Source: an uncultured Eubacteriales bacterium
GTDB taxonomy: Bacteria > Bacillota > Clostridia > Christensenellales > CAG-1252
Length of the DNA stretch: 61,740 nucleotides
Reading direction: 5' to 3'
Assembly: GCA_902797685.1 (NCBI GenBank)
Contig: CADBTQ010000071.1
Coordinates: forward strand, 1-61,740
The notes under the pieces were generated by a model that saw only the letters and a program-made list of their open reading frames with translations, ran no database searches and was not told the DNA's origin. Both the position numbers and the translations under genes were made by a program. Position 1 is the first letter of the stretch. Every line of letters starts with the position of its first letter. Shown one piece after another: positions 4,325 to 56,926 of this stretch.

Positions 4325-4563
4325 CCGATCGACAAATAAGTTACTATTCGGATCGGTTGCACCCCCCATTTTACGTAGTTTAAGCGCGAAGTGGAGACAC
4401 ACCGACCGATCGACAAATAAGTTACTATTCGGATCGGTTGCACCACCCATTTTACGTAGTTTGGGCGTGAAGTGGAGAACCGCCGACCGAGAGACAAACG
4501 AATTAACGTTCGGATCGGTTGCACCACCCCCCCATTTTACGTAGTTTGGGCGTGAAGTGGAGA
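4325..4563. repeat. Three tandem ~81-bp imperfect repeats
   Basis: Units start at 4325, 4406 and 4487 (ccgatcgacaaataagttactattcggatcggttgcaccacccattttacgtagtttgggcgtgaagtggaga); the third copy is more diverged. Confidence 0.92.
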
Positions 4564-4671
4564 GGAGAGAGGGTGCGTCCAAGGGAGCGAGAGCGCGCCC
4601 AGTGTACTGGCGTACACGGCGCAAACGAGCGACTGCACGTCGCCCTATATCGCTCCAATCCACGCCCAAAC
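4544..4671. repeat. Dispersed long-hairpin repeat family A (ERIC/MITE-like), copy 1
   Basis: Core gagagggtgcg...gtgtact-ggc-gtacac...cgccctatatcgctc; 19-bp inverted arms (17/19 match) at 4544-4562 and 4653-4671. Confidence 0.75.
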
Positions 4672-4682
4672 AAGGAGAAGTT

Positions 4683-6290
4683 ATGCCACTCTGCACCTAC
4701 GCCCCCACCCACCAAGAAGGACTGACCACGGTAGACAACGCGTTTATCCGTCACTTTTTGCCCTATGCCCCCGAGGCGGCCGTCAAGGTCTACCTCTACG
4801 GGCTGTATCTTTGCGCCGACCCGATGTCGAGTGAAAACACCCTGCAAGGGGTGACCGAAGGGCTGGATCTGACGGCGGACGAGGTCAAGCAGGCGTTTGG
4901 CTATTGGCAAGAGCAGGGGATCGTGCGGGTGGTCTCGACCGAGCCGCTCGCCGTGCAATATCTCTCCCCTTCCCGCGCGTTTGCCCCCAACAAATTGCTC
5001 AAAAAGGATCGCTATCAGGACTTTATCGCCCAACTCAACGAGTTGTTTTGCGACAAGGTGCTGTCCAGCAACGAGATCTACCGCTATTTGGACTTTATCG
5101 AGGAGACGCATATCGATCCGCAGGCGCTACTGATGATCACCAAGTACTGCCTCGACTACAAAAAGCTCAACAACCCCACCTCTTACGTGTTGACGGTCGC
5201 CCGCGAATGGGTGGCGGAGGGCTGCACGACGGTGGACGCGACCGAAAAGCACATCGTGGAAGTGGAAGAAGGAGGCGAGAATCTCCGCGCCGTGTTCCGC
5301 GCTTTGCGCAAGAGTTCCGCTCCCGACATCGGGGATCACAACCTCTACATCAAGTGGACCAAGGGTTGGGGCTTTAGCCAAGACGCCATACTGCTTGCCG
5401 CCAAAGGGGTCAAAAGAGGCGGTATGGAGAGGCTTGACGCCACCCTGGACGCTTATTTCCGCGAGGGCGTATTCAGTCCCGCCGAGATCGAGGACTACAC
5501 CCGCCGTCATCAGGAGACGGTGGATCTGGCGTACAAAGTCAACAAAACGCTGGGCTTGTACTACGAATCGGTGGAACAGATCGTGGAGAGTTACACCGCG
5601 CCTTGGCTCAAATTGGGGTACACCCCCGACGCGGTGATACTGATCGCCAAATACTGTATGCTTCGCTCCGTTCGCACCCTTGCCGGCATGGACAACACCC
5701 TCAAAGGGCTGTATCGGGAAGGGATCATCGACGAAGAGGACGTCAAACGCTATTTGGACGCCTTTGCCCGCTCGGATCGAGCGATCGCAGGCATTTTGCA
5801 AGCGGCGGGGATCGGCAGACAAGTCAGCGAAGGAGACAGGGAATTGTACCGCACTTGGAGCGGCACTTGGGGCTTGGACGACAGCGTGATCTTGTACGCC
5901 GCGGGACTGAGCCAAGGTCGTCCCTACGCCTTATCGTCTATGGGCAACAAACTCGCCAAATGGAAGGGTTTGGGAGTGACGACCGTGGAAGGCGCGCGCA
6001 AAGCGGAAGAAAACGGCGCGCCCGCCACCTCTCCCGCAAGGCCCGCTAGGCAAGTACCCGCCCAAGCGGGCGAAGAGTTCCGCAAGGCGGAGATCCGCGG
6101 GGCGCTCGCGCAAGACGCGACCTACCGCAAATTGGACCAAGCGGTGCGTACCCTCAAACTCAAATTGGCGCATTACGAACTGACCGCCGAGCCGGTGCCT
6201 TTGACCGTACAAAAGGATTTGGAACAAGCGGAGCAAGCCGTCAAAGAGCGTATCGTCCAACTGGGCTACGACCCAGCCGAACTGGCTTAA
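4683..6290 (+). CDS. DnaB/DnaD-family replication initiation protein with multiple DnaD domains
   Basis: TTVDNAFIRHFLPYAPEAAVKVYLYGL N-terminus; repeated DnaD-type motifs (YVLTVAREWVAEGCTTV, LAKWKGLGVTTVE); SD aaggag at 4672 before ATG 4683. Confidence 0.85.
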   Translation: MPLCTYAPTHQEGLTTVDNAFIRHFLPYAPEAAVKVYLYGLYLCADPMSSENTLQGVTEGLDLTADEVKQAFGYWQEQGIVRVVSTEPLAVQYLSPSRAFAPNKLLKKDRYQDFIAQLNELFCDKVLSSNEIYRYLDFIEETHIDPQALLMITKYCLDYKKLNNPTSYVLTVAREWVAEGCTTVDATEKHIVEVEEGGENLRAVFRALRKSSAPDIGDHNLYIKWTKGWGFSQDAILLAAKGVKRGGMERLDATLDAYFREGVFSPAEIEDYTRRHQETVDLAYKVNKTLGLYYESVEQIVESYTAPWLKLGYTPDAVILIAKYCMLRSVRTLAGMDNTLKGLYREGIIDEEDVKRYLDAFARSDRAIAGILQAAGIGRQVSEGDRELYRTWSGTWGLDDSVILYAAGLSQGRPYALSSMGNKLAKWKGLGVTTVEGARKAEENGAPATSPARPARQVPAQAGEEFRKAEIRGALAQDATYRKLDQAVRTLKLKLAHYELTAEPVPLTVQKDLEQAEQAVKERIVQLGYDPAELA

Positions 6291-6313: not shown

Positions 6314-6345
6314 ACGCCTTTATCTTGGGATAGAGGCGTTTTTTT
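6314..6345 (+). terminator. Intrinsic terminator
   Basis: acgcctttatc-ttgg-gatagaggcgt followed by a T-run. Confidence 0.7.
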
Positions 6346-6451: not shown

Positions 6452-9400
6452 ATGTTGTCATTAGCGTTATCAGCCGTGTACATCTTCGTTCTGTACGCCG
6501 TGGTCGGCGCCCTTTTGGTCATTGGCGCAGCGTCCGTCGTCGGTACGGTCGTGGCGGTCAACAAAGCCAAAAAGCAAAAGCCCCAAGAGGAGCAAGCCAA
6601 GCAAGCTGCCGTCGCGCCCACTCAACCCAAAGCGGTAGAGCCCAAGAAAGAGGAGCAACCCGTCAAGGAAGAGGAGCCCCAAGAGGAGCAAGTCGAAGAA
6701 GCACCCGTCGAGGAAGCACAACCCGAGGTACAAGAACCCGTGGAAGAGCCCTTGCAAGAGGAAATGCAAGAGGAAGAAGGCGAGGAAGCGCCTATCGTTC
6801 CTCTCGGTTTGGCCGAAGAAGAGGAGCCGCAAGAGGAAGAGCCCCAAGACGGAGAGGATTATCATACCTTTATCCGCTACCTCAGGTCGTTTGAGTCGAG
6901 GATCAGACAATCCAACGACAAGACCAAAAACTACTACTCCATCCTCAAAAACACCCTGCTCTCTTACAAACGGGTACATGCTCGTTTGAGTTGGAAGAAA
7001 GAGTCCTTCCGTTTGGGACGCGAGCTCAAAGCGATGATGACCGTGCGCGGCAAGACTTTGTGCTTGTTCGTGGCGCTCGACCCCAACGAGTTTGATCAAA
7101 ACATCTATCATCAACGCGACTTTTCGGACAAAGCCACCTATCAGGAAGTGCCCATGATGCTTAGGGTCAAGTCGGATCTGGGATTGAGACGCGCCATCCG
7201 CATCATCGAGATCTTGATGGAGAGAGCGGGAGCCGTCGTCGATCCCAAAGCGGTCAGCGTGGATTACGTGCCCGCCTTCCCGTACGAAGACGATCCCACC
7301 CTATTGGAGATGGGTCTTATCCGTATCGTCGGCACCCGTCGTAAGGTCGTGATGCAAGAGGGCGAGACGAGAGAAGAAGCCATCGCGCGTATCCAAGAGG
7401 AACTATTGCAAAATGACGTGGAAGAGGACGAAGTGGACGTCGTCAGCGCCGAAGAACAAGCGGAAGAAGACGAGGAAGAGGGAGTGCAAGTCACCCTGTC
7501 TCCCGACGAGTTCCGCGACTTTATCGCGTACAGCCGTTCGTTCGACGCCAAATTGAGGCAAGCGAGCGACCTCACCAGAGATTTTTATAACGAGATCAAA
7601 AACAAACTCCTCTCCTATAAGCGCATCCACGACAGGATGAGTTGGAAGAGAGAGTCCTTCCGTTTGGGACGCGCTCTCAAAGCCGCTTTGACCGTGCGCG
7701 GCAAGACCTTGTGCTTGTTCGTGGCGCTCGATCCCAACGAATACGACCAAAATATCTACCATCAACGCGACTTTTCGGACAAGACGTCGTATAAAGACGT
7801 GCCCATGATGCTTAGGGTCAAGTCCCATTTGGGTCTCAAACGCGCCCTCCGCATCATCGAGATCTTGATGGAGAAGTCGGACGTTCAACTCGACTCCAAA
7901 GCCGAGAGGGTCGATTATCTGCCCGCTTTGCCTTACGAAGACGATCCCACCTTGCTCGAGATGGGTCTCATCAAAAAGGTCATTCGTCGCCGCCGTATCA
8001 CCGTACTCGAGGGCGAGACGTTGGAAGAGGCTGTCGAACGTACCCAACAGGAATTGTTCGCCAAGGACGTTGACGAGGTAGAGGAAGAGGAACTCGCCCA
8101 AGAGGAAGAGCAACCCGCCGAAGAAGAAACTCCCGAAGAGCCTATTCAAGAGGAAGCGGCGGAAGAAATCGCCGAAGAGCCTGTCCAAGAGGACACTCCC
8201 GCCAAAGAAGAAACGATCGAGGAGCCCGTCGAAGAAGAAACGATCGAAGAGCCCCAACAAGAAGTCGAGGAACAACCCGTGGAAGAACAAGCGGAAGAAG
8301 AGAGCGGGGATACGCTCGAGTCCGCTGTCGCTCCCCTCGGTATGACGGAAGAAGAACAACCCCAAGAAGAGGCGCAACCACAAGAAGAGGTTGAAGAACA
8401 GCCCGAAGAGGCGGAGCAATCGCAAGAGGGAACTCCCGCCGAAGAGGAGAAGGTCGAAGAACAACCCGTTGAGGAGACTCAACCCGAGGAAGAACAACCC
8501 GAGGAAGCGGAAGAGCCCAAGCAAGAAGAGGTCGAGGAACAACCCCAAGAAGAGGTTGAAGAAACGCCCGAGGAAACGGTAGAAGAAGCGCCCGTCGAGG
8601 AAGAATCGGTTGAGGAACGACCCCAAGAAGAGCCTATTCAAGAGGAAGAAGAGCAACCCGCCGAAGAGCCTGCCCAAGAAGAAGTCCCTGCCGAAGAGCC
8701 CACCAACGAAGACTTGGCGGACGAGTTGGACGTAGACGTCGAGCCCGTTCATGCGGAACAGGAACAACCCATTGAGGAAGAGCCCCAACAAGAAGAAGTC
8801 GAAGAACAACCCGAGGAAGAACAAGAATTGCCTGCTCAAGAAGAGCCTTCCAACGAGGAATTGCTCGACGAATTGGACGTGGACATCGAGCCCGCTAAGC
8901 CGCAAGAGCCCGCCGAGGAAGAACAAGTTGAGCAACAACCCGAAGAGCCTATTGAAGAGGAAGAGGCGCAACCCGAGGAAGAGAGCGAAGATACGCTCGA
9001 GTCCGCTGTCGCTCCCCTCGGTATGACGGAAGAGGCGCAACCCCAAGAAGAGGCGCAACCCGAAGAAGAACAACCCGAGGAAGAAAAGGTTGAAGAGCAA
9101 CCCGAGGAAGAAAAGGTTGAAGAACAAGCGGTAGAAGAAACGCCCGCCAAAGAGGAAAAGGCCGAAGAGCAACCCCAAGAGGAAGAGCAACCGCAAGAGG
9201 AGATCAAGGAAGAGCCTAAGCAAGAAAAGGCACCCGTGATCGGCGGTCAACCTCTCCCCCAAGGATTGTACGACGAAGTGCCCGAAGAGCGCAAGGAAGA
9301 GCCTCAAGAAGAACAACCCCAAGAGGAGCCCAAACAAGAGGAAGAGTCCCAAAAGGAAGAGTTGTCCGAGGACGAAAAAGCCCTGCAAGCTTTGATGGCG

Positions 9401-9988
9401 GAAGGAGAAGAAGAGGAAGCCGAGGAAGAGCGCAAGCGCAAAGAGGCGGAAGAAAAAGCCCGCCAAGAGGACGAAAACCGCGTACCCTTGGAGCAGATCG
9501 TTGCCGATCCTCGCTTTAACGACTTTACGATGTTGCAAAAGAAGTTGTTTGCCGCCACGTCCAACCAACGCTATCTGTACAGCGAACTCAAAAACACCCT
9601 GTTGTCTTTCAAGAAGGTCAAATGCAAGGAGAGCAACGCGGGCGACAGTTTCCGCCAAGGCGGCAGATTGATCGCGCGTATCACCCTCAACAACGACACG
9701 TTGCGCTTGCACTTGTGTCTCAATCCTTCCCAGTACAACCCCAGACAGTATCACCATTACAGTTTGGAGAAGTACGCCGCTTACAAGGAAGTGCCCTTTA
9801 CCTTGGACGTGACCGACAGCGATCAACTGCAAACGGCGGTGGGTTTGATCAACGACGCCATGAGCAGCAAATACCTGTTGTACGTGGACAACAAGCGCGA
9901 ATACGTCGACTACGCCGCTTTGTACACCTTGGGACAAGACGGCTCCATCCCCGAGCAACCCAAATCCGCCGAGGAAGAAGAGGAATAA
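6452..9988 (+). CDS. N-terminally membrane-anchored, very Glu/Pro/Gln-rich protein with three copies of an uncharacterised ~150-aa domain
   Basis: SD aggagg; hydrophobic N-terminus followed by basic KKQK; three repeats of SF..xR...YxxLKNxLLSYK...ESFR.G...RGKTLxLxxALDP...VP..LxV.S; long acidic low-complexity linkers. Confidence 0.85.
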   Translation: MLSLALSAVYIFVLYAVVGALLVIGAASVVGTVVAVNKAKKQKPQEEQAKQAAVAPTQPKAVEPKKEEQPVKEEEPQEEQVEEAPVEEAQPEVQEPVEEPLQEEMQEEEGEEAPIVPLGLAEEEEPQEEEPQDGEDYHTFIRYLRSFESRIRQSNDKTKNYYSILKNTLLSYKRVHARLSWKKESFRLGRELKAMMTVRGKTLCLFVALDPNEFDQNIYHQRDFSDKATYQEVPMMLRVKSDLGLRRAIRIIEILMERAGAVVDPKAVSVDYVPAFPYEDDPTLLEMGLIRIVGTRRKVVMQEGETREEAIARIQEELLQNDVEEDEVDVVSAEEQAEEDEEEGVQVTLSPDEFRDFIAYSRSFDAKLRQASDLTRDFYNEIKNKLLSYKRIHDRMSWKRESFRLGRALKAALTVRGKTLCLFVALDPNEYDQNIYHQRDFSDKTSYKDVPMMLRVKSHLGLKRALRIIEILMEKSDVQLDSKAERVDYLPALPYEDDPTLLEMGLIKKVIRRRRITVLEGETLEEAVERTQQELFAKDVDEVEEEELAQEEEQPAEEETPEEPIQEEAAEEIAEEPVQEDTPAKEETIEEPVEEETIEEPQQEVEEQPVEEQAEEESGDTLESAVAPLGMTEEEQPQEEAQPQEEVEEQPEEAEQSQEGTPAEEEKVEEQPVEETQPEEEQPEEAEEPKQEEVEEQPQEEVEETPEETVEEAPVEEESVEERPQEEPIQEEEEQPAEEPAQEEVPAEEPTNEDLADELDVDVEPVHAEQEQPIEEEPQQEEVEEQPEEEQELPAQEEPSNEELLDELDVDIEPAKPQEPAEEEQVEQQPEEPIEEEEAQPEEESEDTLESAVAPLGMTEEAQPQEEAQPEEEQPEEEKVEEQPEEEKVEEQAVEETPAKEEKAEEQPQEEEQPQEEIKEEPKQEKAPVIGGQPLPQGLYDEVPEERKEEPQEEQPQEEPKQEEESQKEELSEDEKALQALMAEGEEEEAEEERKRKEAEEKARQEDENRVPLEQIVADPRFNDFTMLQKKLFAATSNQRYLYSELKNTLLSFKKVKCKESNAGDSFRQGGRLIARITLNNDTLRLHLCLNPSQYNPRQYHHYSLEKYAAYKEVPFTLDVTDSDQLQTAVGLINDAMSSKYLLYVDNKREYVDYAALYTLGQDGSIPEQPKSAEEEEE
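8309..8346 (+). repeat. REP-like family B element, in-frame coding copy
   Basis: gatacgctcgagtccgctgtcgctcccctcggtatgac encodes DTLESAVAPLGMT. Confidence 0.8.
8990..9027 (+). repeat. REP-like family B element, in-frame coding copy
   Basis: Identical to 8309-8346. Confidence 0.8.
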
Positions 9989-9991
9989 TCA

Positions 9992-11896
9992 ATGAAACAA
10001 GGATTTATCGAAGTTTGCGCCCACTCCCCTTTGTTGAGAGTGGGCGACACTAAATATAACGCGCAACTGCTCGCCCAAACCATCTGCGAGGAAGCGGACA
10101 AGGGCGTGAGGATCGTCGTCACGCCCGAGTTGGGTTTGACCGGCTACACCGTGGGGGATCTACTCCTGCAATCCACCCTGCTTGCGGGCGCGATGGACGG
10201 GCTCGAGTACGTTGCCGAATCTACCGCCGATTGCGATTGCTTGGCGATAGTGGGTCTTCCCCTTACGGTGGACGGCAAACTCTACAACTCCGCCGCCGTA
10301 CTCCTGCACGGCAAGGTGCTGGGTGTGATCGCCAAAGGCAATATCCCCACGTACAGCGAGTTTTACGAGGGGCGCTATTTTGCCCCCGCGCCCAAAGAGA
10401 CTCGCACCATCCGCATTTTGGGACAAGAAGCGCCCTTTGGCGGGGCGATCGTGTTCCGCTGCGCCGATCTGCCCGATCTTGCTGTAGGCGTGGAGATATG
10501 CGAAGATCTGTGGATCCCCAATGCCCCGCACGCCAAGTTGGCGAAGGGCGGCGCGACCATCTTGTGCAATCTATCCGCCAGCGACCAAGTGGCGGGCAAA
10601 GCCAATTACCGCCGGCTGTTGGTGCAATCGGCGTCGGCAAGGTGTTTGGCGGGCTATATCTACTGCGACGCCCCCACCACCGAATCCACCCAGGACGTGG
10701 TCTTTTCGGCGCACGATATCATCGCCGAATCGGGCTATATCATGGCGGAGAGCAAACCCTTCGGCTTGGGACGCGCCAAGACCGAGATCGACGTCGCAAG
10801 GCTCAACTACGAGCGCAGACGAGTCAGCACGTTCACCACGTCCAACGAGGGGATCACCTACGTGGACTTTGCCTTTGACGGATTGAGCGAGGCGACCTTG
10901 ACGAGAGAGGTATCCCCCTATCCCTTCGTGCCCGACGATCCCGCCGCTCTTAGCGAACGCTGCGAGGAGATACTCGAAATGCAAGCGCACGGCTTGGCGA
11001 GACGGATCGAGCATACGGGGGCAAAATGTATGCTCCTCGGCGTATCGGGAGGGCTTGACAGCACGCTCGCTTTGTTGGTGTGCAAGCAAGCCTGCGAACT
11101 GTTGGGACGTCCTTTAAGCGATATCCATGCGGTCACTCTCCCCTGCTTCGGCACCACCGACCGCACCAAAAACAACGCGTTGGATCTCTGTCGCGCCTTG
11201 GGTGTACCCTGCCGCGAGATCAACATCGGGGAATCGGTCGCCAAACATTTGGCGGACATCGGACACGACCCCGCTGCCCGCGACGTGGCGTACGAAAACG
11301 CCCAAGCCCGCACCCGTACGATGGTGCTGATGGACTTGGCAAACCAAGAGGGCGGTTTTGTGGTCGGCACGGGCGATCTCAGCGAATTGGCGCTTGGTTG
11401 GTGCACCTACAACGGGGATCAAATGAGCATGTACGGGGTCAACGGCTCGGTGCCCAAGACTTTGATCCGCCACCTCATCGCGCACGTGGCAAGTCGGTCG
11501 GAAGAGGCGCTCAAGAGGGTGCTACTTGACGTGATCGACACCCCCATCTCCCCCGAACTGTTGCCCGCAAACGGGGGGCAAATCGTGCAAAAGACCGAGG
11601 AGATCGTGGGCAAGTACGACCTCAACGACTTTATCCTCTACTATATGATGCGTTGGGGATTTAGCCCCACCAAGATCGACAGACTGCTGTCCGTCGCCTA
11701 TCCCTCTATCGATCGAGAGGCGCGGAAAGAGGCGCTCAAGCGCTTCTATACCCGCTTTTTCTCCCAACAATTCAAGCGCAATCCCATGCCCGACGGCGCC
11801 AAAGTGGGTACGGTCGCCTTGTCCCCCCGCGGGGATTGGCGTATGCCCTCGGACGCCACCGCAAGGATCTGGCTGGACGAGATCGAAGAGTTGTAA
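9992..11896 (+). CDS. nadE: Glutamine-dependent NAD+ synthetase
   Basis: Nitrilase domain (PELGLTGY, EFYEGRYF, EICEDLW) plus synthetase domain (GVSGGLDST, ENAQAR, GTGDLSE, SPELLP, SPRGDWRMPSD). Confidence 0.96.
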   Translation: MKQGFIEVCAHSPLLRVGDTKYNAQLLAQTICEEADKGVRIVVTPELGLTGYTVGDLLLQSTLLAGAMDGLEYVAESTADCDCLAIVGLPLTVDGKLYNSAAVLLHGKVLGVIAKGNIPTYSEFYEGRYFAPAPKETRTIRILGQEAPFGGAIVFRCADLPDLAVGVEICEDLWIPNAPHAKLAKGGATILCNLSASDQVAGKANYRRLLVQSASARCLAGYIYCDAPTTESTQDVVFSAHDIIAESGYIMAESKPFGLGRAKTEIDVARLNYERRRVSTFTTSNEGITYVDFAFDGLSEATLTREVSPYPFVPDDPAALSERCEEILEMQAHGLARRIEHTGAKCMLLGVSGGLDSTLALLVCKQACELLGRPLSDIHAVTLPCFGTTDRTKNNALDLCRALGVPCREINIGESVAKHLADIGHDPAARDVAYENAQARTRTMVLMDLANQEGGFVVGTGDLSELALGWCTYNGDQMSMYGVNGSVPKTLIRHLIAHVASRSEEALKRVLLDVIDTPISPELLPANGGQIVQKTEEIVGKYDLNDFILYYMMRWGFSPTKIDRLLSVAYPSIDREARKEALKRFYTRFFSQQFKRNPMPDGAKVGTVALSPRGDWRMPSDATARIWLDEIEEL

Positions 11897-47253: not shown

Positions 47254-50200
47254 TTACTTGATAAACGCAGTCTGCTTGATCTTGATCAAGCCTTTTTCGA
47301 TCAAAGCCTCGTCCGTTTCGTACTCGAAGGAGTAGGTCTCGTTGTGTTCGAGCCCCTTGACGGCTTGCGCCTTTTCCATGGCTTCGTCCAAAAGTTGCAG
47401 GGCGTACTTGAGGGCGCGATCGCTCTTGATCTTGACCTTGGTGGGCACTTTGGCGTACTTGGAATGCTCGCTCTCGTCCTTGGCGTGGTATTTCGCCGCG
47501 ACCTCGTTGGGATCCAAGGCGAAGTAAGCGAACACCGTTTTGTTGCGGATACGCACGCGCATCACGGGCGCGCGACCACGATTGAAGGTCTCGTAGCCCC
47601 AAGCTTGCCTGTCGCCGATCTTCTTGTAGGACAAAGCGGCGTTTTTGAGGGCGGTATAGCGCGCGAGGACCACGGGGTCGGCTTGGATCAATCTCGCTTG
47701 CATACTGCGGTCTTTGAACTCGCGCATGCCCGTTTCGGGATTGATAAACACGTTGTTTTCCCCTTCGTCCTCTTCTTCCTCTTCCGCTTCGTCCGCCACA
47801 AGGGCTGCCGCTACGGGCGCTTCCGTGGGTTCTTCGGCGGGAGTCTCTTCGGGGACTTCTTCCTGAGCGCTCTCTTCTTGAGACGCTTCCTCTTGGGGTT
47901 GTCCCTCCAAAGGCTCTTCCTCTTGGGCAGGTTCTTCCTGCATTTCTTCGACGGGGACTTCCTCTTTGGCTTCCTCTTGCGCGTCGTCTTTGGCGGTCTC
48001 CTCTTTGGGATCGCCGTCTTCGTCGTTATCTTTCTTTTTCTTGCGAGCAAGAGCGAGGATCAAACACACGATGATGACGACCAAAACGATGATGATGGCG
48101 ATCAGGATCCAGAACCAAATGGGCATCGCTTCCTTTTGATCCGAAGTCGCCACGCCGTAGATGGAGAAGTGATTGGTCTTAAACACCATGTATCCGTCCG
48201 CGTCCAACGTGCCGTTCAACACTTCCACTTTGCCTTGGTCGTTGATGTACACGGGATGCAGATCCAATCCTCTCGCCACCTCGGGTACGAAGATTTTGAT
48301 CTCGTATTGATCGTTGGGATTGATGGTATCGCTCGTGGTGATCTGATACACCGCCACCAAGTGGGCGTTGCCCTCGTTGAGAGCGCTGAAGTCCAACGTC
48401 TTGGGGAGTTGGAAGATGTGCTCCACCTTGAAGTGATTGGCGTTGAGACCGCCGGGACGGGAGACGACGACCACCAGTTGACCCTCTTCGTCCTCGTATT
48501 CCACGATATCCTTGCCGCGTTTGATAGTCAACAAAGCGGGCGCTTTGGTCCACACGGGAGGATTGTAGTGGGCGGGATCGTCGGACGCCAACACGGGGCG
48601 CACTTTGTACTCGCCGACAAGAGTGGGCTCGAGCACTTTGCGGTCGTGAGCGTCGAAATACTCTACGCCGACCATTCTCACGCCCTCGGGCAGATCGTCA
48701 ATGGTAAACTCAAAGGTCTCGCCCGACTCCTCTTCCACGACGACGTGAGAGTAATGCCACGAAGCGCCAGACAAGTCGTAATCGCCCTTGCGGATAGACC
48801 AAGCGAGGTTGCGGTCGATGTGGTTGCCGTAAATATAGTTCTCCATGCCGGAGATAGCAAAGGAAGCGGTATAGTTGCCGACGTCGTCCGCGCTGACCGT
48901 GCCGGAGTAGGTCAAAAAGTCTTCCCACTTGTCGTCGCCGATCAGTTGAGGCAGGTTGACAATCTCCACTTGGTGCGCCAAGCCGTCGTACACAAAGCTC
49001 GAACGATCGATCACGTAGTTCCAGTTGGCGCGCCCCATATCCAAGTTCAAGGGACGGATGCGCACTTCCACCGAAAGGGATGCGGTATCGCTCAAGTCGC
49101 CCGCCACGGCGGTCACGACCACGAGATAGGTACCGTTGTCGGTCACGTTGCGCACGGTGAGGGTGGCTCCGTTGGTATTGATCTGCCTGCCGTCTTTGCT
49201 CCACTCGTAGGTGTAGGTCACTTCTCTATCCAAGTTGATGGAAGGAGTGATGGTGATCGTACGCGCCACGCCGTCGAAAGCGTCCACGCTGATATTGCCA
49301 CTGGACGACAAAGTCAGGATCAACACGTCGGGCGGAATGATCTTTTCCTCGATGGTCAAGGTACGGGTCTCGTCAAAGGACGCGATCTCGTAGTTGGCGG
49401 TGTCCTCTTGGGTCAGCTCGGCGCTGATGAGATAGACGCCCACTTCGGTGGGCAACTCGCTCGCTTCTTGCCCGTTGTACAACACCTTTGCGGTCACGCC
49501 CACGGGGAGTCCCAACAACTCGAAGGGATTATAAGCGTCCTCTTCGATGATGGTGACGTCGTTTTGATTCCAATGCGCGCCGCTTAAGTCGTATTGGGCT
49601 TTGGCGATGGACCACTCGAGGTCGTCCACGTCCCAACCTTCGAAAATATAGTTATCGGACGTACCCAAACTTACTTTGGCGACGTATACGCCCGCGTCGG
49701 TGGCTTTGAGGTCGCCCGAGTAGGTCAAAGGCAGGGTATCGTCACCGATCAAGGTGACGGAGTCCAAAAACTCCAATCCCACGCTCTTTTCGGTGCCGTC
49801 GTAGACCAAGAACCCCACCATCTCCCAATCAACGGCGGACACATCCACTTTAAGGGGCTCGATCTTCCACTCGATGTCGCCCAAGAGCGCGAGGTCGCTC
49901 AAATCGTAGTTGTCGGATGCGCTCGCCTCAAAGGAAGCGGTGTAAGAGCCTACCGCGGTGGCTTTGTTGCCGAGATAAGAAACGGTCACTTCGTCGGCGC
50001 CGATCAGTACGGGCAAAGCGTTGAGTTCCACTTTCTGTTCCTGTCCGTTGTAGGTATAGGGCACGGTGTAGTTCCAGGCGACGGTGGATATGTCGGGTTT
50101 GAAGGGATTGAGCACGAAGTTCAACGGCTTTTTGATTTCGGAGATCACCGATTCGCCCTTGTTGGCCCTGACGACCAAAGTATAGTTTTGGCTCGCCACG

Positions 50201-53200
50201 TCCACCCAGGTAAAAGCGACTTCGTCTTTGACCTTGTCTTCGCCGTCGTACCAAGCCATGGTATAGGTCAACCACTCGGCGGGGTCGGCGACGGAAACAT
50301 TGTAAGAGTGTTGTTGTTGATCGTAAGTAGCGCTGTACACGCCCTCGACCAGTTCAAATCCCTCGATCACTTCGTTGAGGTCGATCTCCACGGCTTTCAA
50401 CACGACGGTGGCGGCGCCGATAGAGGGATTGTTGTGGTTGCGGTCCGCACCGGTGATGGCGGCGGTCACCTGATAGGTGCCGGCGAGATAGGAATGATCG
50501 CCTTGATACGTGATCGTCGCGCTGAGCCCCGTGGGCAAACCGCTTATCGCCAAGCCGTATTCCTGACCCGCTTTGACGGTGAGGACACCGTTTTCAAAGG
50601 TGTAGCCGTCCGCCGTATCCTCGGTCACGACCCAAGAGAGATCGGCGGGGATGTCGGCTTTGAGGATTTCCCAATACAAGTCCATGTCGGACAAACAGCT
50701 CGCGTCGTAGTTGGAACTGGCGGGAGCGCTTGCTTGGGCGCGATACTCGCCCGCGTCGGTCGCCTTGTTGCCCGTATACTCGACGGGGATAAACGAGGGC
50801 ACGCCATAAAGCCACATTACCCATTCGTTGCCGTTGTAGGTGACGTCCCACAAGTAGTCCCGCTCGTAGTTCCATTCGAGGTCGAACTCGTCGAGCACGA
50901 AGGGGTTGATCTTCCACTCGAGGTCGCCCACCGTCCAACCGTCGAACACGTAGTTGGGGTTGGCTTGCAGTGTGGCTTTGGCGGTATAGGTACCCGCATC
51001 TTTGGCGCGAGTCACGCCCGCATATTGCACGTTGAGCGTGTCAAGCCCGAACAGCTCGACTTCGTCGATAAAATCGAGGGACACGCCCTGCTCGTTGCCG
51101 TTATAGGTGAAGGGTTCGTCGGGGTCGTAGGTCCACTCGATATCGCTCACGTCCACGTGGGCGGGCAATATCTTCCACTCCAAGTCGCCCAACGTGTAGT
51201 TGATGATCTCGTAATCTTCGGCATGCTCCTCGTCCACCGAGGGGACGGCGGAAGCGACGTAAACACCCGCGTCGGTCGCTTTGTTGCCGACGTATTCAAA
51301 GATGATGAAGTCGTAGTCGGGGACGATCACCTTGACTTGCTTTTCGGTCGCGTCGTAGCTGAAGGGATTTTCGTAATCCCAACGAGCGTCTTTGCAGTCC
51401 ACGTAGATCTTGTGCAGGCTGACTTCCACCTCTTCGGTTTGACGAGCCACTTGATAGGTGGGATCGTAGGGATCCGAAGCAAGCGCAATAGCGTAGTAGC
51501 GACCGCTTTGGTCACGGTGACTGATGGTCAGAGTGGCTTGGGTCTCCCCCTCGAGCAGCACGAAATCGCCCTCCTCGCTACCCTCGGCGAGGAAATACCA
51601 CTCGTACGTCCAATCGGCGTAGGACGCGTAATCGTCCACGACGGTAAACACGATCTCTTCCCCGTCGAACGCTTTGTCCAATTCGCCCTCGGTCTCCAAG
51701 GTCACTTCGTACTCGATCTCTTTGACGGCGTACAACTTGACGTCGTGATCGGGCACTTCGTCCACGCGGTTGCCCTCTTCGTCCACCCAGTACAGCACGT
51801 CGTAGCCGTCCACGTCCTCGGGACGGGCGAATTTGGCGACGTCCACACCCTTGGCGAGCAAGCCTTCCACTTGCAATTCGTCTTGCACGTAGTAGCTCAC
51901 TTTGACCAAGTCGGGCACGGTGAGATGGAGATCCCAAGCGAAGTCGAATCCGTCTTCCTCAAAGAAGGTGGCGATCCAAGGACCTTTGGACTTGGAGATG
52001 CGGGTAAAGATCTTTTCGTAATCGAAATAATAGCTGTCCGCCCAAGCAAACTCGCCTTCCCCTTGGTAGAGGTCGAGCAAAGTCAGGTTGCGATAAGCAT
52101 CGGGCACGTGATTATAGGCACGATTGACGTAGCCTACCAGTTTGGTATAGTAGTCGGCATAGCGAGCCAACTTGTCAAAATAAACGTCGAGGTCGCGGTC
52201 GGCGTAACGCTCGAAGTCGAGATAATGATAGAGGAGGTCGACGTCCATGTGGGCGAAATCGATGCGATTGAGCAACGAGTCCACTTTGGCTTTGGCTTTG
52301 TTGTAGAGGGAGTAGTTGGTGGGATCCACCTTGAGATAACGGACGATGAAGTCTTGCACGTCGTCGGTGGTGTAATTGTTGGCAAGATCCAGCAAGCGGC
52401 CTACCACCTTTTCCACGTTTTCCTTGGTAAAACGAGCGATGTCGATATAGTCGCAAAGGTGAGATACCATCGCTTCGGCGTTGCCGAGGTTGGCGAAGAT
52501 GGCATTGAAGTCCAATTCCTTAGCGGTGTCGATCCAATCTTGCAAAGTCATTTCGTTGACCAAGTCGACCCAATCTTGGGGGGACTCGCTTTGCACGTCC
52601 ATGTACTTGTCGCGGATACGTTGGGGAACTCTGTCCGAGTTGAGCACCTTGGCGATGGCTTTGGCGGTCAACTTGGGCATGACGGCGTCCACGTACAAAG
52701 AGTGCTCGTCGTACGACATGGTGACGTGTTCGTCAAACAGACGAGCGGCTTGACGGATGCGGCCTTCGTGACCGATCACTTGCAATACTACCGTAAACTC
52801 GCGGGTACCGAAGTCGGTCACCACGGCGACGTCGTAGGACAGTTTGAGTTCGTCCATGTTGGCGATCTCGGCGGGACGAGGCAGCGACTTGATCAAGGAC
52901 ACGATCGCGTCCTTTTTGAAGGAACCGGTCTGATATACGGCTTTGCCGTTGATCTTGAGGGCGACGATGGCGTTGAGCATATCCTCGATGGTGATCTCGA
53001 CCTCTCCGCCCGCTTTTTCCACCTGCTCCACCAAGTTGGTGACCTTGGTCTCCATCTTGGCCGCCAACTCTTCGCCGCGTTCGGGCTCGTCGGCGTAGAC
53101 CTCTTTGATCAGTTCGGTCGCCACGTCGTTGAGCTTGGCGGAGATCTCTTCGTAAGTGTACTCGGTCTTTTCGGCGATCTTTTGCTTGATAAAAGCGTCG

Positions 53201-53652
53201 TAACTACCCGACAGTACGCTGTCGATCTTGTCCTTGGCTTCCTCGCCGGTAAAATAGTGCTCGAAGAAATCCTGCACCTTACCCATGTCGATGTTGTCGA
53301 GATCGATATGGCTCAAATCCACGTCGTCGGGGATCTCGCCCGCGCCTGCGGTGGTGTGGAAATCCATGATCATCCCCTCAAAGTCCAATGCGTCGATGAG
53401 CGCTTGCGCGTCCGCCTTGAGGTCGGACAGATCCGAGGGACGAATGGACGACAACTCTTTGAGATCGGTGTTGATCGTAAAGGTCGCCACGTCGTTGGAC
53501 AAAGTCAGCAGATACCAACCGTGATCACGGTAGAGATCGTACTGCGTTTCGTCGGCAGAAGCAAACAATCCCATAGACACTCCGCACGCCATAACGGCGA
53601 CCAAAAGTGCCACGACAAGGACCAATGCCACTGATTTGATTGTGTGTTTCAT
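47254..53652 (-). CDS. Very large cell-surface protein (2132 aa): signal peptide, helical N-domain, Ig/MBG-like repeats, TM, acidic linker, cytoplasmic domain shared with 6452..9988
   Basis: Repeated W.Y..P.TYNG.EQ...Y.GNKATDAG.Y.A....NY....LEWKI units; TM IWFWILIAIIIV...RKKK; SD ggagg. Confidence 0.85.
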   Translation of the reverse strand: MKHTIKSVALVLVVALLVAVMACGVSMGLFASADETQYDLYRDHGWYLLTLSNDVATFTINTDLKELSSIRPSDLSDLKADAQALIDALDFEGMIMDFHTTAGAGEIPDDVDLSHIDLDNIDMGKVQDFFEHYFTGEEAKDKIDSVLSGSYDAFIKQKIAEKTEYTYEEISAKLNDVATELIKEVYADEPERGEELAAKMETKVTNLVEQVEKAGGEVEITIEDMLNAIVALKINGKAVYQTGSFKKDAIVSLIKSLPRPAEIANMDELKLSYDVAVVTDFGTREFTVVLQVIGHEGRIRQAARLFDEHVTMSYDEHSLYVDAVMPKLTAKAIAKVLNSDRVPQRIRDKYMDVQSESPQDWVDLVNEMTLQDWIDTAKELDFNAIFANLGNAEAMVSHLCDYIDIARFTKENVEKVVGRLLDLANNYTTDDVQDFIVRYLKVDPTNYSLYNKAKAKVDSLLNRIDFAHMDVDLLYHYLDFERYADRDLDVYFDKLARYADYYTKLVGYVNRAYNHVPDAYRNLTLLDLYQGEGEFAWADSYYFDYEKIFTRISKSKGPWIATFFEEDGFDFAWDLHLTVPDLVKVSYYVQDELQVEGLLAKGVDVAKFARPEDVDGYDVLYWVDEEGNRVDEVPDHDVKLYAVKEIEYEVTLETEGELDKAFDGEEIVFTVVDDYASYADWTYEWYFLAEGSEEGDFVLLEGETQATLTISHRDQSGRYYAIALASDPYDPTYQVARQTEEVEVSLHKIYVDCKDARWDYENPFSYDATEKQVKVIVPDYDFIIFEYVGNKATDAGVYVASAVPSVDEEHAEDYEIINYTLGDLEWKILPAHVDVSDIEWTYDPDEPFTYNGNEQGVSLDFIDEVELFGLDTLNVQYAGVTRAKDAGTYTAKATLQANPNYVFDGWTVGDLEWKINPFVLDEFDLEWNYERDYLWDVTYNGNEWVMWLYGVPSFIPVEYTGNKATDAGEYRAQASAPASSNYDASCLSDMDLYWEILKADIPADLSWVVTEDTADGYTFENGVLTVKAGQEYGLAISGLPTGLSATITYQGDHSYLAGTYQVTAAITGADRNHNNPSIGAATVVLKAVEIDLNEVIEGFELVEGVYSATYDQQQHSYNVSVADPAEWLTYTMAWYDGEDKVKDEVAFTWVDVASQNYTLVVRANKGESVISEIKKPLNFVLNPFKPDISTVAWNYTVPYTYNGQEQKVELNALPVLIGADEVTVSYLGNKATAVGSYTASFEASASDNYDLSDLALLGDIEWKIEPLKVDVSAVDWEMVGFLVYDGTEKSVGLEFLDSVTLIGDDTLPLTYSGDLKATDAGVYVAKVSLGTSDNYIFEGWDVDDLEWSIAKAQYDLSGAHWNQNDVTIIEEDAYNPFELLGLPVGVTAKVLYNGQEASELPTEVGVYLISAELTQEDTANYEIASFDETRTLTIEEKIIPPDVLILTLSSSGNISVDAFDGVARTITITPSINLDREVTYTYEWSKDGRQINTNGATLTVRNVTDNGTYLVVVTAVAGDLSDTASLSVEVRIRPLNLDMGRANWNYVIDRSSFVYDGLAHQVEIVNLPQLIGDDKWEDFLTYSGTVSADDVGNYTASFAISGMENYIYGNHIDRNLAWSIRKGDYDLSGASWHYSHVVVEEESGETFEFTIDDLPEGVRMVGVEYFDAHDRKVLEPTLVGEYKVRPVLASDDPAHYNPPVWTKAPALLTIKRGKDIVEYEDEEGQLVVVVSRPGGLNANHFKVEHIFQLPKTLDFSALNEGNAHLVAVYQITTSDTINPNDQYEIKIFVPEVARGLDLHPVYINDQGKVEVLNGTLDADGYMVFKTNHFSIYGVATSDQKEAMPIWFWILIAIIIVLVVIIVCLILALARKKKKDNDEDGDPKEETAKDDAQEEAKEEVPVEEMQEEPAQEEEPLEGQPQEEASQEESAQEEVPEETPAEEPTEAPVAAALVADEAEEEEEDEGENNVFINPETGMREFKDRSMQARLIQADPVVLARYTALKNAALSYKKIGDRQAWGYETFNRGRAPVMRVRIRNKTVFAYFALDPNEVAAKYHAKDESEHSKYAKVPTKVKIKSDRALKYALQLLDEAMEKAQAVKGLEHNETYSFEYETDEALIEKGLIKIKQTAFIK

Positions 53653-53806: not shown

Positions 53807-56800
53807 TTACGCCTTGTTTTTGCGACGTTTTTGGCGCAAGATCGCCCAAACGACGACCCCTACCACGGCAAGCGAGATCACTACCACGGCGGCGATACCC
53901 AGCCCCAAGATCAACTTGAACTTTTTGCCGTAACGCCCTTCCTCGAGGGGCGGCTCCACCACGGGAGTGGACGTATAACGAGCGGTGTACACCGCGTCTC
54001 CCGTCACGGGGACGACCTCTTTGTCCCACCCCGCGAACGTGTACGAATAACGTTGATCACTGGCACGCTCGGGCGGGATAGGCGGGGTGATCGTCTCCCC
54101 GTAAGTGGCGGTCTGTACGTCCAATTCCACGCCGTCCGATAGGAAAGTGACGGTGTATCGCTCCACCTGCCCTTCCGCCCACACGGTCACGTTGCCACGG
54201 GGCATGACGAAACGGCTCCCGATCTCCTCTTCGCTGCCGTCCACGCTCATTTTGAGGGCGGTCAATCTGATCCCGTCGGGGACGGACACGGTCACGATGA
54301 CGGTGTCCTCGGGATAGGCAAGGGTGGGGTTGACTTCCAAAGTCATACCAAGCGGCGGCTTGATGACCGACACGGCGTATTGCATCACGTAGCGATAGGT
54401 CGCGCCCGCCGCGGCGCTGAACGCGATACCCTCTTGGGTACGAGTATAGGCGACCTCTCTCTCCTCGTCCCCGTCCACCAACAACAACTTGGCTCCCTCG
54501 GGCAAATCGGTAAAGACTTCCACGTCCAAATTGCCCTGCCAATCGGTCACGTCCAGGCGATATTCGGCGCAATACTTGTCGCGGGAGAGCGAATACCACT
54601 CGATAGAGCGGTCTTGCCCGGCAAAGTCCGAGAGCAGGTAGTCGGGGATATCCACCGTCACGCCCGAGAGCATGACGGACAAGTTTTTGTCCTCGTCCCG
54701 AGCCAAGTTTGCCACCTCGCCCAAAGACGCTTCCACGCGCGAATTATCCGTGCAATCTACGACCAAACTCTCGTCTTGGGTGCGGATATCCACCTTGCCG
54801 TCCTCTTCGGATACGACGGTATGAGGCAAAAACTGCGCAAGGTAGACGACGTTGCCGACCATAATATCCCCCTCGGCAAAATAGCGGCCGCTATCCGACA
54901 TCCACCCCGCAAACGTGTAGTAGACGTTGCCGTCCCTTTTCTTTGCGGGCGAGAGAGGCGGGACGATCGCATCTCCGTAGGGCACGATCTCGGACGTTTC
55001 GCCCAAGGGCGTGCGCCATATGGCGGTGTACAGCCTCGTTATCGCGTCAAAATGGGGATAGACGACGACGTCTTGGTCAACGGCGCTTAGGTCAAAGGGC
55101 TGTCCGTCTCCGTCGATCCAGTAATCGAATTGATAGTATGCGCCCACGTCGGGAGCACGCGTGGGCGCGTCTCCCCCGTATTCGACGAACGAGCCTCTGT
55201 CGGCGGTGACGACGTAGTCTTCCCTTCCTTCCACTCGGAAGTTGACGGTGATGCTCTCCGCTACGACCTGCTTGTCCACGGTCGTAGTCAGGGGCAACGT
55301 CAGATCCTCTTTCACCGTGCGACGGACGAGAGTTTTGTCCTTGTAGGCATTGACCAACGCTTGCTCCTCTTCGCCCAACGTCTTGCGCGTCGGCTCGCTT
55401 GCCTCGGCGACCGGGGTGGGTTTGCCCGCCACGGGCACCGCTTGGGGCGCCTCGCCCGGATCGGGGACTTCCAGAGGCGGCGTGGGCTGCGCTACGGGCG
55501 CGGGCATGGTCGGCTCCGCCACGACTTGAGGCGGGACGGGCTCGATCACCTCGCGCGGATAACCGCCCGCAAGAGGGGTAGCGTTGTTAAGATCTTTGAC
55601 GATCTCCCCGCCCAAAATCTGTTTGGCGGTCTGCTTGTTGAGTTTCCAGTCGTCAAGATAACTCACCTGCCCCGCGTAATTCTTTTGGGGGTTGTCGTTG
55701 AGCGCGTTGCCGATGACCGCCAATTCGGCGAGCAAGATCATATACTTGCGTTCCTTGTCCATTTGACGGATATACAACGCCACTTTTTTGTTGCCGTACA
55801 AGTTTTCCAACGCCCCCAGTAGGGTCTGCCAGTTGGAGATCAACGCCTGATAGTTGGCGGAATAATAGCCGTATTTTTGTTGGTCGTTGTCGTAACCGAA
55901 ATAGGTGGAAAACCACTCCCTCAACTTGATGGTGGCGCCCCTTGCCGCCAAGATCACGTTTTTGTCCACCCCGACCGCGTTGGAAGTCAACACTTCGGAC
56001 TCCCGCAACACTTCGGTCACCGCCGAGCCCATCACCGCGTCGTAGACCGAGCGCTCCAAGTCGGTATAGTGGGTCTTGATGCACTCTACCAGCGCCACTT
56101 GTCTGTCTGCGATCGCCTTGTTGGCGAGATATTGCCTATACGCTTCCGCCTTGGCGGGGTACGCTTCCGCTTCCGCCAAATAGGCTTGGTATGCCGCCAA
56201 GTCCTCGCCGTAGCGGGTCAAAGCGGCTTGATAATCCGTATACGCCCGGTAGTCGGCAAGATAGGTTTGATAATCGGCGAGATACGCTTGGTATCTGCCG
56301 TCGGCGGCCGACCAAGCTCTATACGCCATGTCGTACGCCTTGTAACGGTCGTACGCCTCTTTGGCTGTGAGGTAAGCTTGGTACTGCCGATAGGCCTCCC
56401 ACGCGATCTCGTACTCCCTATCCCAATCCACCTGCTGTTTGTTGTAGGTCAAAGCCGCTTGATACGCGCTGTTGGCATAAGACGTCAATACGTCCTTGCC
56501 GACAGTGAGGTTTGCTTGGTATTGCACCGTCAAAGCGTCCTCTTCCGAAGCGGAGAGGGTGCAAACGTACGAGTTGCCCTCTTTGACAAACGGGGTCTCA
56601 ACACCACTGAGCCTGACGAGAGCGGGCGTCCAAGTCAAATTGTCCTTGACGACGGGTCTCGCTTCCACCCGAAACAGTCCCTCGCCTTCCGCGTGCACAG
56701 TGATGGCGGAGGCGGGGATCCTCGGATCGTAGCGCACCCCTTTGCCCGCAAGATAGGGCAACTCCGTCTCCCCTACCTCTACTCCCGCCGCTTCGAGCAA

Positions 56801-56926
56801 ATACTCGGCGGACAGCCAAACGGTGCCGTCCGAGGGCTCGGCAAAAGCGCTCGCTCCGACAACAGTCGAAACGAGGGTCACGAGAAGTATGAGGGTGAGA
56901 ATGAGGATCCGACCGTACTTTTTCAT
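53807..56926 (-). CDS. Cell-surface protein with Ala/Tyr-rich helix, Pro-rich segment, InlB-B-like repeats and C-terminal TM
   Basis: Signal peptide; YQAYLADYQTYLADY-type heptads; PxxP tract; three YTFAGW/YQFDYW-type repeats; TM followed by RQKRRK. Confidence 0.8.
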   Translation of the reverse strand: MKKYGRILILTLILLVTLVSTVVGASAFAEPSDGTVWLSAEYLLEAAGVEVGETELPYLAGKGVRYDPRIPASAITVHAEGEGLFRVEARPVVKDNLTWTPALVRLSGVETPFVKEGNSYVCTLSASEEDALTVQYQANLTVGKDVLTSYANSAYQAALTYNKQQVDWDREYEIAWEAYRQYQAYLTAKEAYDRYKAYDMAYRAWSAADGRYQAYLADYQTYLADYRAYTDYQAALTRYGEDLAAYQAYLAEAEAYPAKAEAYRQYLANKAIADRQVALVECIKTHYTDLERSVYDAVMGSAVTEVLRESEVLTSNAVGVDKNVILAARGATIKLREWFSTYFGYDNDQQKYGYYSANYQALISNWQTLLGALENLYGNKKVALYIRQMDKERKYMILLAELAVIGNALNDNPQKNYAGQVSYLDDWKLNKQTAKQILGGEIVKDLNNATPLAGGYPREVIEPVPPQVVAEPTMPAPVAQPTPPLEVPDPGEAPQAVPVAGKPTPVAEASEPTRKTLGEEEQALVNAYKDKTLVRRTVKEDLTLPLTTTVDKQVVAESITVNFRVEGREDYVVTADRGSFVEYGGDAPTRAPDVGAYYQFDYWIDGDGQPFDLSAVDQDVVVYPHFDAITRLYTAIWRTPLGETSEIVPYGDAIVPPLSPAKKRDGNVYYTFAGWMSDSGRYFAEGDIMVGNVVYLAQFLPHTVVSEEDGKVDIRTQDESLVVDCTDNSRVEASLGEVANLARDEDKNLSVMLSGVTVDIPDYLLSDFAGQDRSIEWYSLSRDKYCAEYRLDVTDWQGNLDVEVFTDLPEGAKLLLVDGDEEREVAYTRTQEGIAFSAAAGATYRYVMQYAVSVIKPPLGMTLEVNPTLAYPEDTVIVTVSVPDGIRLTALKMSVDGSEEEIGSRFVMPRGNVTVWAEGQVERYTVTFLSDGVELDVQTATYGETITPPIPPERASDQRYSYTFAGWDKEVVPVTGDAVYTARYTSTPVVEPPLEEGRYGKKFKLILGLGIAAVVVISLAVVGVVVWAILRQKRRKNKA

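Follow-up and report, generated by a model that had tools for sequence, protein, structure and literature searches.

A portable basic domain related to DUF5655 on membrane-anchored and soluble proteins of an uncultured Christensenellales lineage

The closest described systems to the proteins analysed here come from two sides. On the side of the fold, the double-wing DNA binders described in PMC7641849 include YjbR and MotCF; on the side of the proposed logic, RocS of Streptococcus pneumoniae is described as a membrane-bound, DNA-binding protein that links the nucleoid to the membrane (10.1101/359943; PMC13042908). Our literature search, which covered few subscription journals, returned no functional paper on the family DUF5655 (PF18899), none naming the candidate defence protein PDC-S18, only unrelated papers for YdhG-like proteins with DNA binding, and no description of the branch and fusions reported here. 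We analysed a window of 61,740 nucleotides (positions 1 to 61,740 of contig CADBTQ010000071.1, assembly GCA_902797685.1) from an uncultured Eubacteriales bacterium of the family CAG-1252 in the order Christensenellales. Two of its proteins, one of 1178 amino acids (aa; 6452..9988, plus strand) and one of 2132 aa (47254..53652, minus strand), together carry four copies of a domain of ~150-160 residues. This domain is a real, conserved, independently folding and portable module that sits behind polyacidic linkers. By profile comparison and predicted structure, it belongs to the DUF5655 / DUF1801 (YdhG-like) / YjbR fold group as a divergent branch beyond the cover of current family models. As to function, the reading that we favour, tentatively and at somewhat less than an even chance, is that it may be a cytoplasmic nucleic-acid-binding module tethering its carriers to nucleoid or RNA.

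The first-pass annotation of the window had aligned the four copies by eye, and BLASTP together with profile matches at all four places shows this alignment to be real and far beyond chance. The tail of the 2132-aa protein matches copy 1 of the 1178-aa protein with E 6e-24 (37% identity over 148 aa), copy 2 with E 6e-23 and copy 3 with E 4e-9, and within the 1178-aa protein copy 3 matches copy 2 with E 3e-16 and copy 1 with E 3e-15. The profile finds copy 1 at 6857..7333 (E 1.6e-75), copy 2 at 7505..7987 (E 6.6e-75) and copy 3 at 9512..9946 (E 4.2e-55), all on the plus strand, and copy 4 at the C-terminus of the 2132-aa protein at 47272..47712 on the minus strand (E 9.6e-61). The domain runs one N-terminal and one C-terminal strand past the motif quoted in that annotation. 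Copies 1 and 2 are of one type (A-type, 67-70% identical to each other) and copy 3 is of a divergent B-type, about 30% identical to copy 1. Orthologues of the 1178-aa protein in the genus and family are 925-1171 aa long and 49-55% identical to it (BLASTP), and most of those in the genus have only two profile matches per open frame. Given these counts and the close similarity of copies 1 and 2, the additional (third) copy, of A-type, looks like a recent internal duplication. A comparison of domain and linker identity by global alignment was uninformative, as linkers of low complexity are aligned by their composition and the proteins differ in copy number. A six-frame search of the assembly that contains the window (1.78 Mb in 95 contigs, 98% complete) adds three further carriers on other contigs (including C26, C59 and C83; handles beginning with C, L and G denote our contigs, loci and genomes), giving seven copies in five proteins.

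A HMMER pass over 1.84 billion representative sequences, clustered at 50% identity, returned 3,521 clusters with the domain at E <= 1e-3, 3,188 at E <= 1e-10 and 1,632 at E <= 1e-30. The homologues that we examined number 170, namely the best 150 of the 3,521 clusters and 20 short proteins; of the 170, 150 have two to seven copies and 20 have one. Stand-alone forms are rare, since only these 20 proteins of 80-289 aa were found. In the window's family, all 24 other species-representative genomes carry the domain, with 1-7 matches each, and in 18 of them two or more matches fall in one open frame. In the rest of the order it occurs in 3 of 16 other families, plus one further family in the class sample. 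None of 145 genomes from other orders of the class has it at E <= 1e-8, and another 200 genomes from the phylum gave no match at E <= 1e-6. A pattern scan of GTDB genomes confirmed 434 stretches, from which 80 loci (L023-L102) were kept. All 80 belong to metagenome-assembled genomes (MAGs) of uncultured Clostridia, Christensenellaceae, Christensenella sp., Candidatus Gallimonas and Candidatus Coproplasma, and the isolate or contig labels of the MAGs name chicken, rabbit ('Lapin'), water buffalo rumen and water deer cecum.

The domain is basic, as the first-pass annotation had said. Isoelectric points (pI) are 8.5-9.6 for the seven copies of the own genome and 8.8-9.6 within the 1178-aa protein, where copy 1 reaches 9.6 and the copies alternate with polyacidic linkers. 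Among near-full-length copies, 353 of 386 have a pI >8, with a median pI of 9.41 and a median net charge of +8, compared with a median pI of 4.93 for whole carriers; the 60 residues preceding a copy contain a median of 27% Asp+Glu. The linkers of the 1178-aa protein, three in number, are 34-43% Asp+Glu and Pro/Gln-rich, with short tandem repeats in their DNA, and they are probably disordered. Linker 1 (6572..6856, plus strand; about aa 41-135) has 36% Asp+Glu and 29% Pro+Gln, and linker 3 (7991..9499, plus strand; aa 514-1016) has 43% Asp+Glu and tandem repeats of 15-27 bp.

The arrangement of both window proteins suggests that the domain lies in the cytoplasm. The 1178-aa protein begins with a hydrophobic stretch of ~35 residues, the membrane anchor, whose best 19-residue window by hydropathy (aa 6-24) is encoded at 6467..6523 on the plus strand. 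Its upstream side is uncharged and its downstream side reads NKAKKQK, which by the positive-inside rule suggests an N-out/C-in orientation. In the 2132-aa protein a signal-like segment (aa 7-25, hydropathy) is followed by an ectodomain of ~1800 aa with weak Ig/MBG-type matches, a transmembrane (TM) helix (48052..48108, minus strand; aa 1849-1867, hydropathy 3.9) continued by LARKKKK with five Lys/Arg in the next 15 residues, a putatively cytoplasmic acidic linker (47728..48051, minus strand; about aa 1868-1975, within an acidic tract at aa 1858-1996) and copy 4. Across the 170 homologues, a TM helix precedes the first copy in 104 and follows the last copy in one, and in related genomes 63 of the 70 carriers that were called have no TM helix or signal peptide. 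The cytoplasmic placement in the first-pass annotation fits these counts, and its contrast between a carrier with a large ectodomain and one that is a bare anchor stands.

An AlphaFold2 model of the domain, built from a 25-sequence alignment, is very confident (predicted local distance difference test, pLDDT, 96.8; predicted template modelling score, pTM, 0.90). The chain runs from a strand through two helices, four strands, a short helix, another strand and a long helix to a C-terminal extension. Residues Y26, K30, N31, S35, G53, G64 and P98 are strictly conserved, with no conserved Cys/His/Asp clusters among the invariant columns, and the nearly invariant G53(R54) and R63-G64-K65 fall at the turns between the model strands 48-52/55-63 and 55-63/66-71. 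The signature of the branch is a K-Y-x-x-V-P loop plus a C-terminal extension of ~35 residues, V-D-Y...P-Y-E-x-D-E-x-L-I-E-x-G-L-I-K. When copy 1, linker and copy 2 are predicted together, two confident domains appear on a disordered linker with a pTM of 0.51. This implies beads on a string with no fixed homotypic packing in the model. The intracellular partner and the hub role of the three-copy protein that the annotation had suggested are conjectural.

The affiliation of the domain with DUF5655 rests on several profile comparisons. The PADLOC models of PDC-S18 match the 1178-aa protein in three stretches over the C-terminal ~125 model positions (E 1.1e-9), the best-matching window copy being copy 3 (aa 1030-1136 against model positions 193-300/302). 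They also match the 2132-aa tail (E 1.7e-7), the C26 paralogue (E 1.6e-9), a further place in the own genome (E 1.6e-3) and metagenomic homologues with E down to 3.5e-25. In the full-length PDC-S18 proteins L009 and L011, Pfam places DUF5655 exactly at the C-terminal region matched by the window copies, and a hidden Markov model (HMM) built from the seven own copies reaches 30.2 bits when run on L011's DUF5655 domain (the Pfam gathering threshold for DUF5655 is 24 bits). An hhalign comparison of the family alignment with three DUF5655 domains gives E 4.2e-5 and a probability of 69.6% over 104 columns, and the metagenomic homologue P0002 passes the Pfam model with 62.8 bits summed over its copies, inside the domain. 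As reference DUF5655 proteins we took six PF18899 matches from the window's class. Among the proteins compared, L008 consists of GmrSD_N, GmrSD_C and a terminal DUF5655, that is, a GmrSD type IV restriction enzyme, and in L012 and L013 the DUF1801 and DUF5655 models match the same stretch, by which the two families are related. Taken with the predicted fold, the PDC-S18, HMM, hhalign and P0002 matches place the domain in a divergent branch of this fold group.

Structure comparison points the same way. The top Foldseek matches in the PDB are YjbR 2fki, the YdhG-like 9t2w, DUF1801 2oc6 (E 0.12) and the C-terminal domain (CTD) of MotA. An exhaustive VIA-align search of the PDB ranks YjbR 2fki (Z 7.7; root-mean-square deviation 3.3 over 101 residues), 9t2w (Z 7.6), DR2400 and 2a1v (Z 6.9) and MotA-CTD with double-stranded DNA (5jlt, Z 6.6) above 2kfp (Z 5.8), CyaY (Z 5.7-5.8) and COG5646 2i8d (Z 5.0), all of them middling scores; a Z <8 can reflect only a common arrangement. 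In BFVD, a library of predicted viral structures, the top Foldseek match has E 1.6e-4, and a Siphoviridae 'DUF5655 domain-containing protein', itself a predicted structure, is matched with E 2.8e-3, probability 1.00 and a TM-score of 0.53 over 112 columns. The named neighbours of the domain in the ESM Atlas are DUF3788 and DUF5655. The guess in the first-pass annotation of a DUF5655/YdhG-like domain was therefore right at the level of the superfamily, on the strength of the PDC-S18, HMM, hhalign, VIA-align and BFVD results and the overlap of DUF1801 with DUF5655.

Direct family searches return little. In Pfam and NCBIfam scans of both window proteins no model reaches the domain copies (no PF18899 match at E <= 1), and the seven isolated copies of the own genome have no PF18899 match in Pfam at E <= 10. 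DUF1801/YdhG-like PF08818 matches neither the window proteins nor the seven isolated copies, and on the latter DUF3788 appears as a weak neighbour of copy 1 alone (E 0.22). The MmcQ/YjbR family PF04237 is absent from the Pfam scans of the window proteins, the paralogous carriers of the own genome and the isolated copies. A sequence search of the PDB gave no significant match of the domain, and copy 1 has no counterpart by tblastn in 50,697 phage records.

The present domain and DUF5655 share the order of secondary-structure elements and profile similarity over about 105-125 residues, including the L-K-N-x-L region of a helix, 'GR' and basic second hairpin turns and a hydrophobic strand ending in L-x-P, and both groups usually occupy the C-terminal end of multidomain proteins. 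They differ in that the Pfam model is blind to the window copies, that the present domain has the extra C-terminal extension and is found as tandem copies following polyacidic linkers and TM helices, and that no GmrSD fusion occurs among the present-domain proteins examined. YjbR and MotA-CTD, the best PDB neighbours, are alpha/beta sandwiches with beta-hairpin 'wings'; the present domain may share this fold, but it has no PF04237 sequence match and the Z scores remain below 8. The YdhG-like/DUF1801 proteins, such as the Listeria YdhG-like 'frataxin' 9t2w and B. subtilis YdhG 2oc6, have a similar fold, but are small stand-alone proteins.

The carriers are of several kinds. The 1178-aa type, a bare membrane anchor with acidic linkers and 2-4 copies, is kept throughout the family. 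The 2132-aa protein belongs with those that combine a large ectodomain (Flg_new, MBG_2, beta-helix repeats), a TM helix, an acidic linker and 1-3 copies. In carriers of either type the last domain may be the C-terminal globular one of ribosomal protein uL15 (PF00828). In a Pfam scan of 44 homologues chosen for long C-terminal tails, 23 have a PF00828 tail, and a local HMM finds a uL15-like tail in 48 of the 170 homologues, at the extreme C-terminus every time. In the own genome, two of the five carriers have one, C26 (L006:1045-2166, minus strand; 34.3 bits, E 3e-8) and C83 (L007:55-2322, plus strand; 45.8 bits, E 8.5e-12), against a Pfam cut-off of 21.5, and apart from these two PF00828 is confined to rplO (L114:1279-1725). 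Both tails are 35-36% identical to the uL15 of the own genome and cover its residues 71-148. They are copies of the C-terminal globular domain of uL15, which differ from uL15 in that they lack the uL15 N-terminal extension and are fused behind the DUF5655-like domain. The C26 carrier has no TM helix preceding the domain, and in Pfam neither window protein has a uL15 domain.

Other carriers are soluble. One kind has an N-terminal coiled coil, tens of acidic ~17-residue 'D-Y-D-x-L-A-x-K-V-A-E' repeats and one terminal copy (for example L026:4060-6480, L040:451-3171 and L062:3370-6486), and it matches no Pfam or NCBIfam family. These coiled-coil carriers often stand upstream of a ~630-aa gene, which is RNase J in L111 (Pfam) and elsewhere a probable homologue by size and position. 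Another kind, 10 of the 44 long-tailed homologues, has 2-6 copies around a partial match to DUF2357 (model positions about 88-204), the domain given as the McrC N-terminal domain in PMC11090510; in the window proteins Pfam finds neither DUF2357 nor a PD-(D/E)xK domain. A separate ~800-900-aa protein with a partial DUF2357 match followed by a long charged coiled coil (L140:1-2367 on the own contig C8; L142:3529-6567 on contig C19 of genome G010) is encoded in 23 of 24 family genomes and in none of 16 other families of the order, and in genus g3 a paralogue of it is flanked by two domain copies. Finally, in L141:6666-9479 (minus strand; contig C27 of G010) an acidic disordered region and two copies are fused to an EAL domain (PF00563, E 2.6e-19), which joins the module to a domain of the cyclic di-GMP phosphodiesterase type. 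Frames of the same size occur in nine other genomes of genus g3, with EAL scored in L141 alone. The first-pass annotation had described a lineage-specific system for surface proteins. Its lineage specificity is fair at the level of the order, to which the domain is restricted in the genomes sampled; its scope was too narrow, because the same domain sits on soluble acidic-repeat proteins and beside EAL, McrC-N-like and uL15-like domains.

We favour nucleic-acid binding on these grounds: homology to a domain found at the end of both a GmrSD restriction enzyme and a candidate defence protein, similarity of fold to the double-wing DNA binders YjbR and MotA-CTD, fusions to an rRNA-protein domain and an McrC-N-like domain, high positive charge, and the position of G53-R54 and R63-G64-K65 at the tips of two consecutive hairpins in the model. 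On this reading the domain would bind a polyanionic nucleic acid, most likely DNA, with ribosomal RNA (rRNA) a possible ligand where the uL15 paralogue follows it. Binding would be through the two conserved Gly-plus-basic beta-hairpin tips (GR, RGK), which would act as the 'double wing' does in MotA-CTD and YjbR. Surface proteins, bare membrane anchors, acidic scaffolds and the EAL enzyme would thereby be tied to nucleoid or RNA, the acidic linkers may serve as spacers or intramolecular competitors, and tandem copies would add avidity. The same logic has been put forward for RocS, to which the present carriers compare by analogy alone. There is no homology; RocS, as described, has a C-terminal membrane-targeting sequence rather than a TM helix, and the present proteins have, in addition, very large ectodomains, polyacidic linkers and the domain in tandem.

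Several results weigh against nucleic-acid binding. A six-frame search of the whole genome with PF18899 gives nothing at E <= 10, the own-genome copy on C83 has no PDC-S18 match at E <= 1, and the G-x-x-G-N-G loop before the last core strand, invariant in the three aligned DUF5655 domains (an observation rather than a curated definition), is replaced by the K-Y-x-x-V-P loop in the present domain. Foldseek against the PDB gives no match at E <= 0.001 (best E 0.05) and, as said, the VIA-align scores are middling. The same fold group holds iron chaperones (frataxin, the YdhG-like 9t2w), which means that fold does not fix function. The DUF2357-bearing carriers have no PD-(D/E)xK Pfam match at E <= 1e-4, and the DUF2357-like coiled-coil protein is near-universal in the family, unlike a restriction system; for these two reasons we dropped the idea that such carriers are restriction nucleases. 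Fusion to EAL and the proximity of spoIVA in some genomes would fit a localisation or protein-binding module equally well.

The last point leads to an alternative that we consider unlikely, in which the domain is a protein-protein localisation module that docks its carriers on a cytoplasmic assembly made during sporulation, such as the basement layer that SpoIVA forms in the spore coat. Carriers of the acidic kind would then be functional counterparts of the acidic proteins of coat morphogenesis. In 22 of 80 related loci a SpoIVA homologue is encoded on the strand of the carrier, within flanks of <= 6 kb. It adjoins the three-copy carrier in genus g3 (L108:9378-10955, L109:9565-11043, L110:8937-10490) and stands two genes from a carrier in another family (L111:1771-3261), with carrier then spoIVA in one group and spoIVA then carrier in another. 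Fusion of the domain to unrelated effectors (EAL, coiled coils, surface proteins) is what a targeting module would lead one to expect, and all but one of 28 domain-bearing genomes sampled encode SpoIVA. That co-occurrence loses its force when the other genomes of the order are considered: SpoIVA is present in 38 of 41 genomes, including 12 of 13 without a domain copy, and we rejected a phyletic link between the two. Moreover, the three-copy gene of the window's genus has a DnaB_2-family gene on one side and nadE on the other rather than spoIVA, and the own genome has its spoIVA on a different contig, where the 3.7 kb read around the gene contain no carrier. The order spoIVA, carrier, rnj may be simple inherited synteny among related genomes, and the homology of the domain points instead to DNA-associated relatives.

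Three further explanations start from the charge, the fusions or the fold. The globular domain of uL15 has 23S rRNA as its ancestral ligand, and with its frequent C-terminal place behind a basic domain, and rplO its one other occurrence in the own genome, the module could be a ribosome or rRNA tether that recruits ribosomes or their precursors to the membrane beneath large secreted proteins. We hold this to be rather improbable, because both window proteins end without such a tail, the tail lacks the N-terminal extension by which uL15 threads into rRNA, and many carriers are soluble. The soluble carriers argue in the same way against a partnerless cationic plug that fixes topology and retains very large ectodomains, perhaps on anionic lipid head groups. 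The position of the domain on the C-terminal, Lys/Arg-rich side of the TM helix, its high pI and its presence on giant surface proteins with Flg_new, MBG_2 and beta-helix repeats would suit a plug; a linker of 96 to about 500 residues from the membrane, as in the 1178-aa protein, would not, and the strict conservation of the seven residues named above suggests a specific ligand, so that we regard this explanation as very unlikely. A role in handling small ligands or metals, as in frataxin/YdhG-like iron chaperones, is suggested by the structural neighbours 9t2w and CyaY. Frataxins carry an acidic ridge, unlike the present basic domain, which in addition has its sequence affinity with DUF5655 on nuclease-type proteins and shows no Cys/His/Asp cluster among its invariant columns; this role we consider extremely unlikely.

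The three-copy gene is preceded by a gene of the DnaB_2 family, 'replication initiation and membrane attachment' (4557-6290, plus strand; PF07261, E 3e-24), with a terminator-like hairpin at 6314-6339 between them, and is followed by the gene for glutamine-dependent NAD synthetase, nadE (9992-11896, plus strand). Within the genus, G001 and G008 keep both flanks and G005 the nadE side alone; outside the genus this gene order is not kept. Two genes downstream of the three-copy carrier of G014 (contig C20) is a protein with an unusual fusion of nitroreductase, TIR_2 and BspA-type leucine-rich repeats (L107:10869-12530). The gene immediately upstream of the 2132-aa gene, on the same strand, encodes a surface-type protein of 1039 aa (53807-56926, minus strand). 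This protein has a signal-like N-terminus and a TM helix at the C-terminal end, and in place of a domain copy only the short basic tail RQKRRKNKA. The 618-aa C59 carrier has an extra region of ~125 residues after the domain (L005:1990-2406) that resembles two YegP/DUF1508-type repeats by eye; it has no Pfam match at E <= 0.01 and no homologue among the 170 proteins. Carriers of this type adjoin a conserved ~325-aa gene, Sua5/TsaC-like by eye, with 48-68% identity among the relatives L120-L123. In the own genome (L125) that gene is partial and, only there, followed by genes resembling the spoIIIA operon by eye. A sporulation link through the spoIIIAA-like gene was dropped, as this neighbour is not conserved in the relatives.

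As judged from sequence, we are dealing with a solid new domain subfamily with unusual fusions, among them tails behind TM helices of giant surface proteins and the reuse of a domain from a ribosomal protein. DUF5655 and related families are widespread, and the branch supplies 3,521 clusters of natural fusions in which it serves as a portable, putatively cytoplasmic tail. Should nucleic-acid binding prove false, a clean definition of the domain would still improve the annotation of the many large 'hypothetical' proteins in Christensenellales-type MAGs. If binding to DNA or rRNA is true, the carriers would represent a new way to couple envelope proteins to the nucleoid or the ribosome in Gram-positive gut bacteria, DUF5655 in defence nucleases would be a likely nucleic-acid recognition module, and the uL15-like tails would offer a rare example of a domain from a ribosomal protein put to use outside the ribosome. 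More far-reaching, and in our view a long shot, is an order-wide trans-membrane coupling system in which the 'double-wing' domain, often with the uL15 globular domain, would tie surface adhesins, anchors and scaffolds to nucleoid or ribosomes. The cell surface would then be mechanically or spatially linked to the genetic or translational machinery, in a bacterial counterpart of the eukaryotic tethers between membrane and nucleoskeleton or between the endoplasmic reticulum and ribosomes through ribosome receptors.

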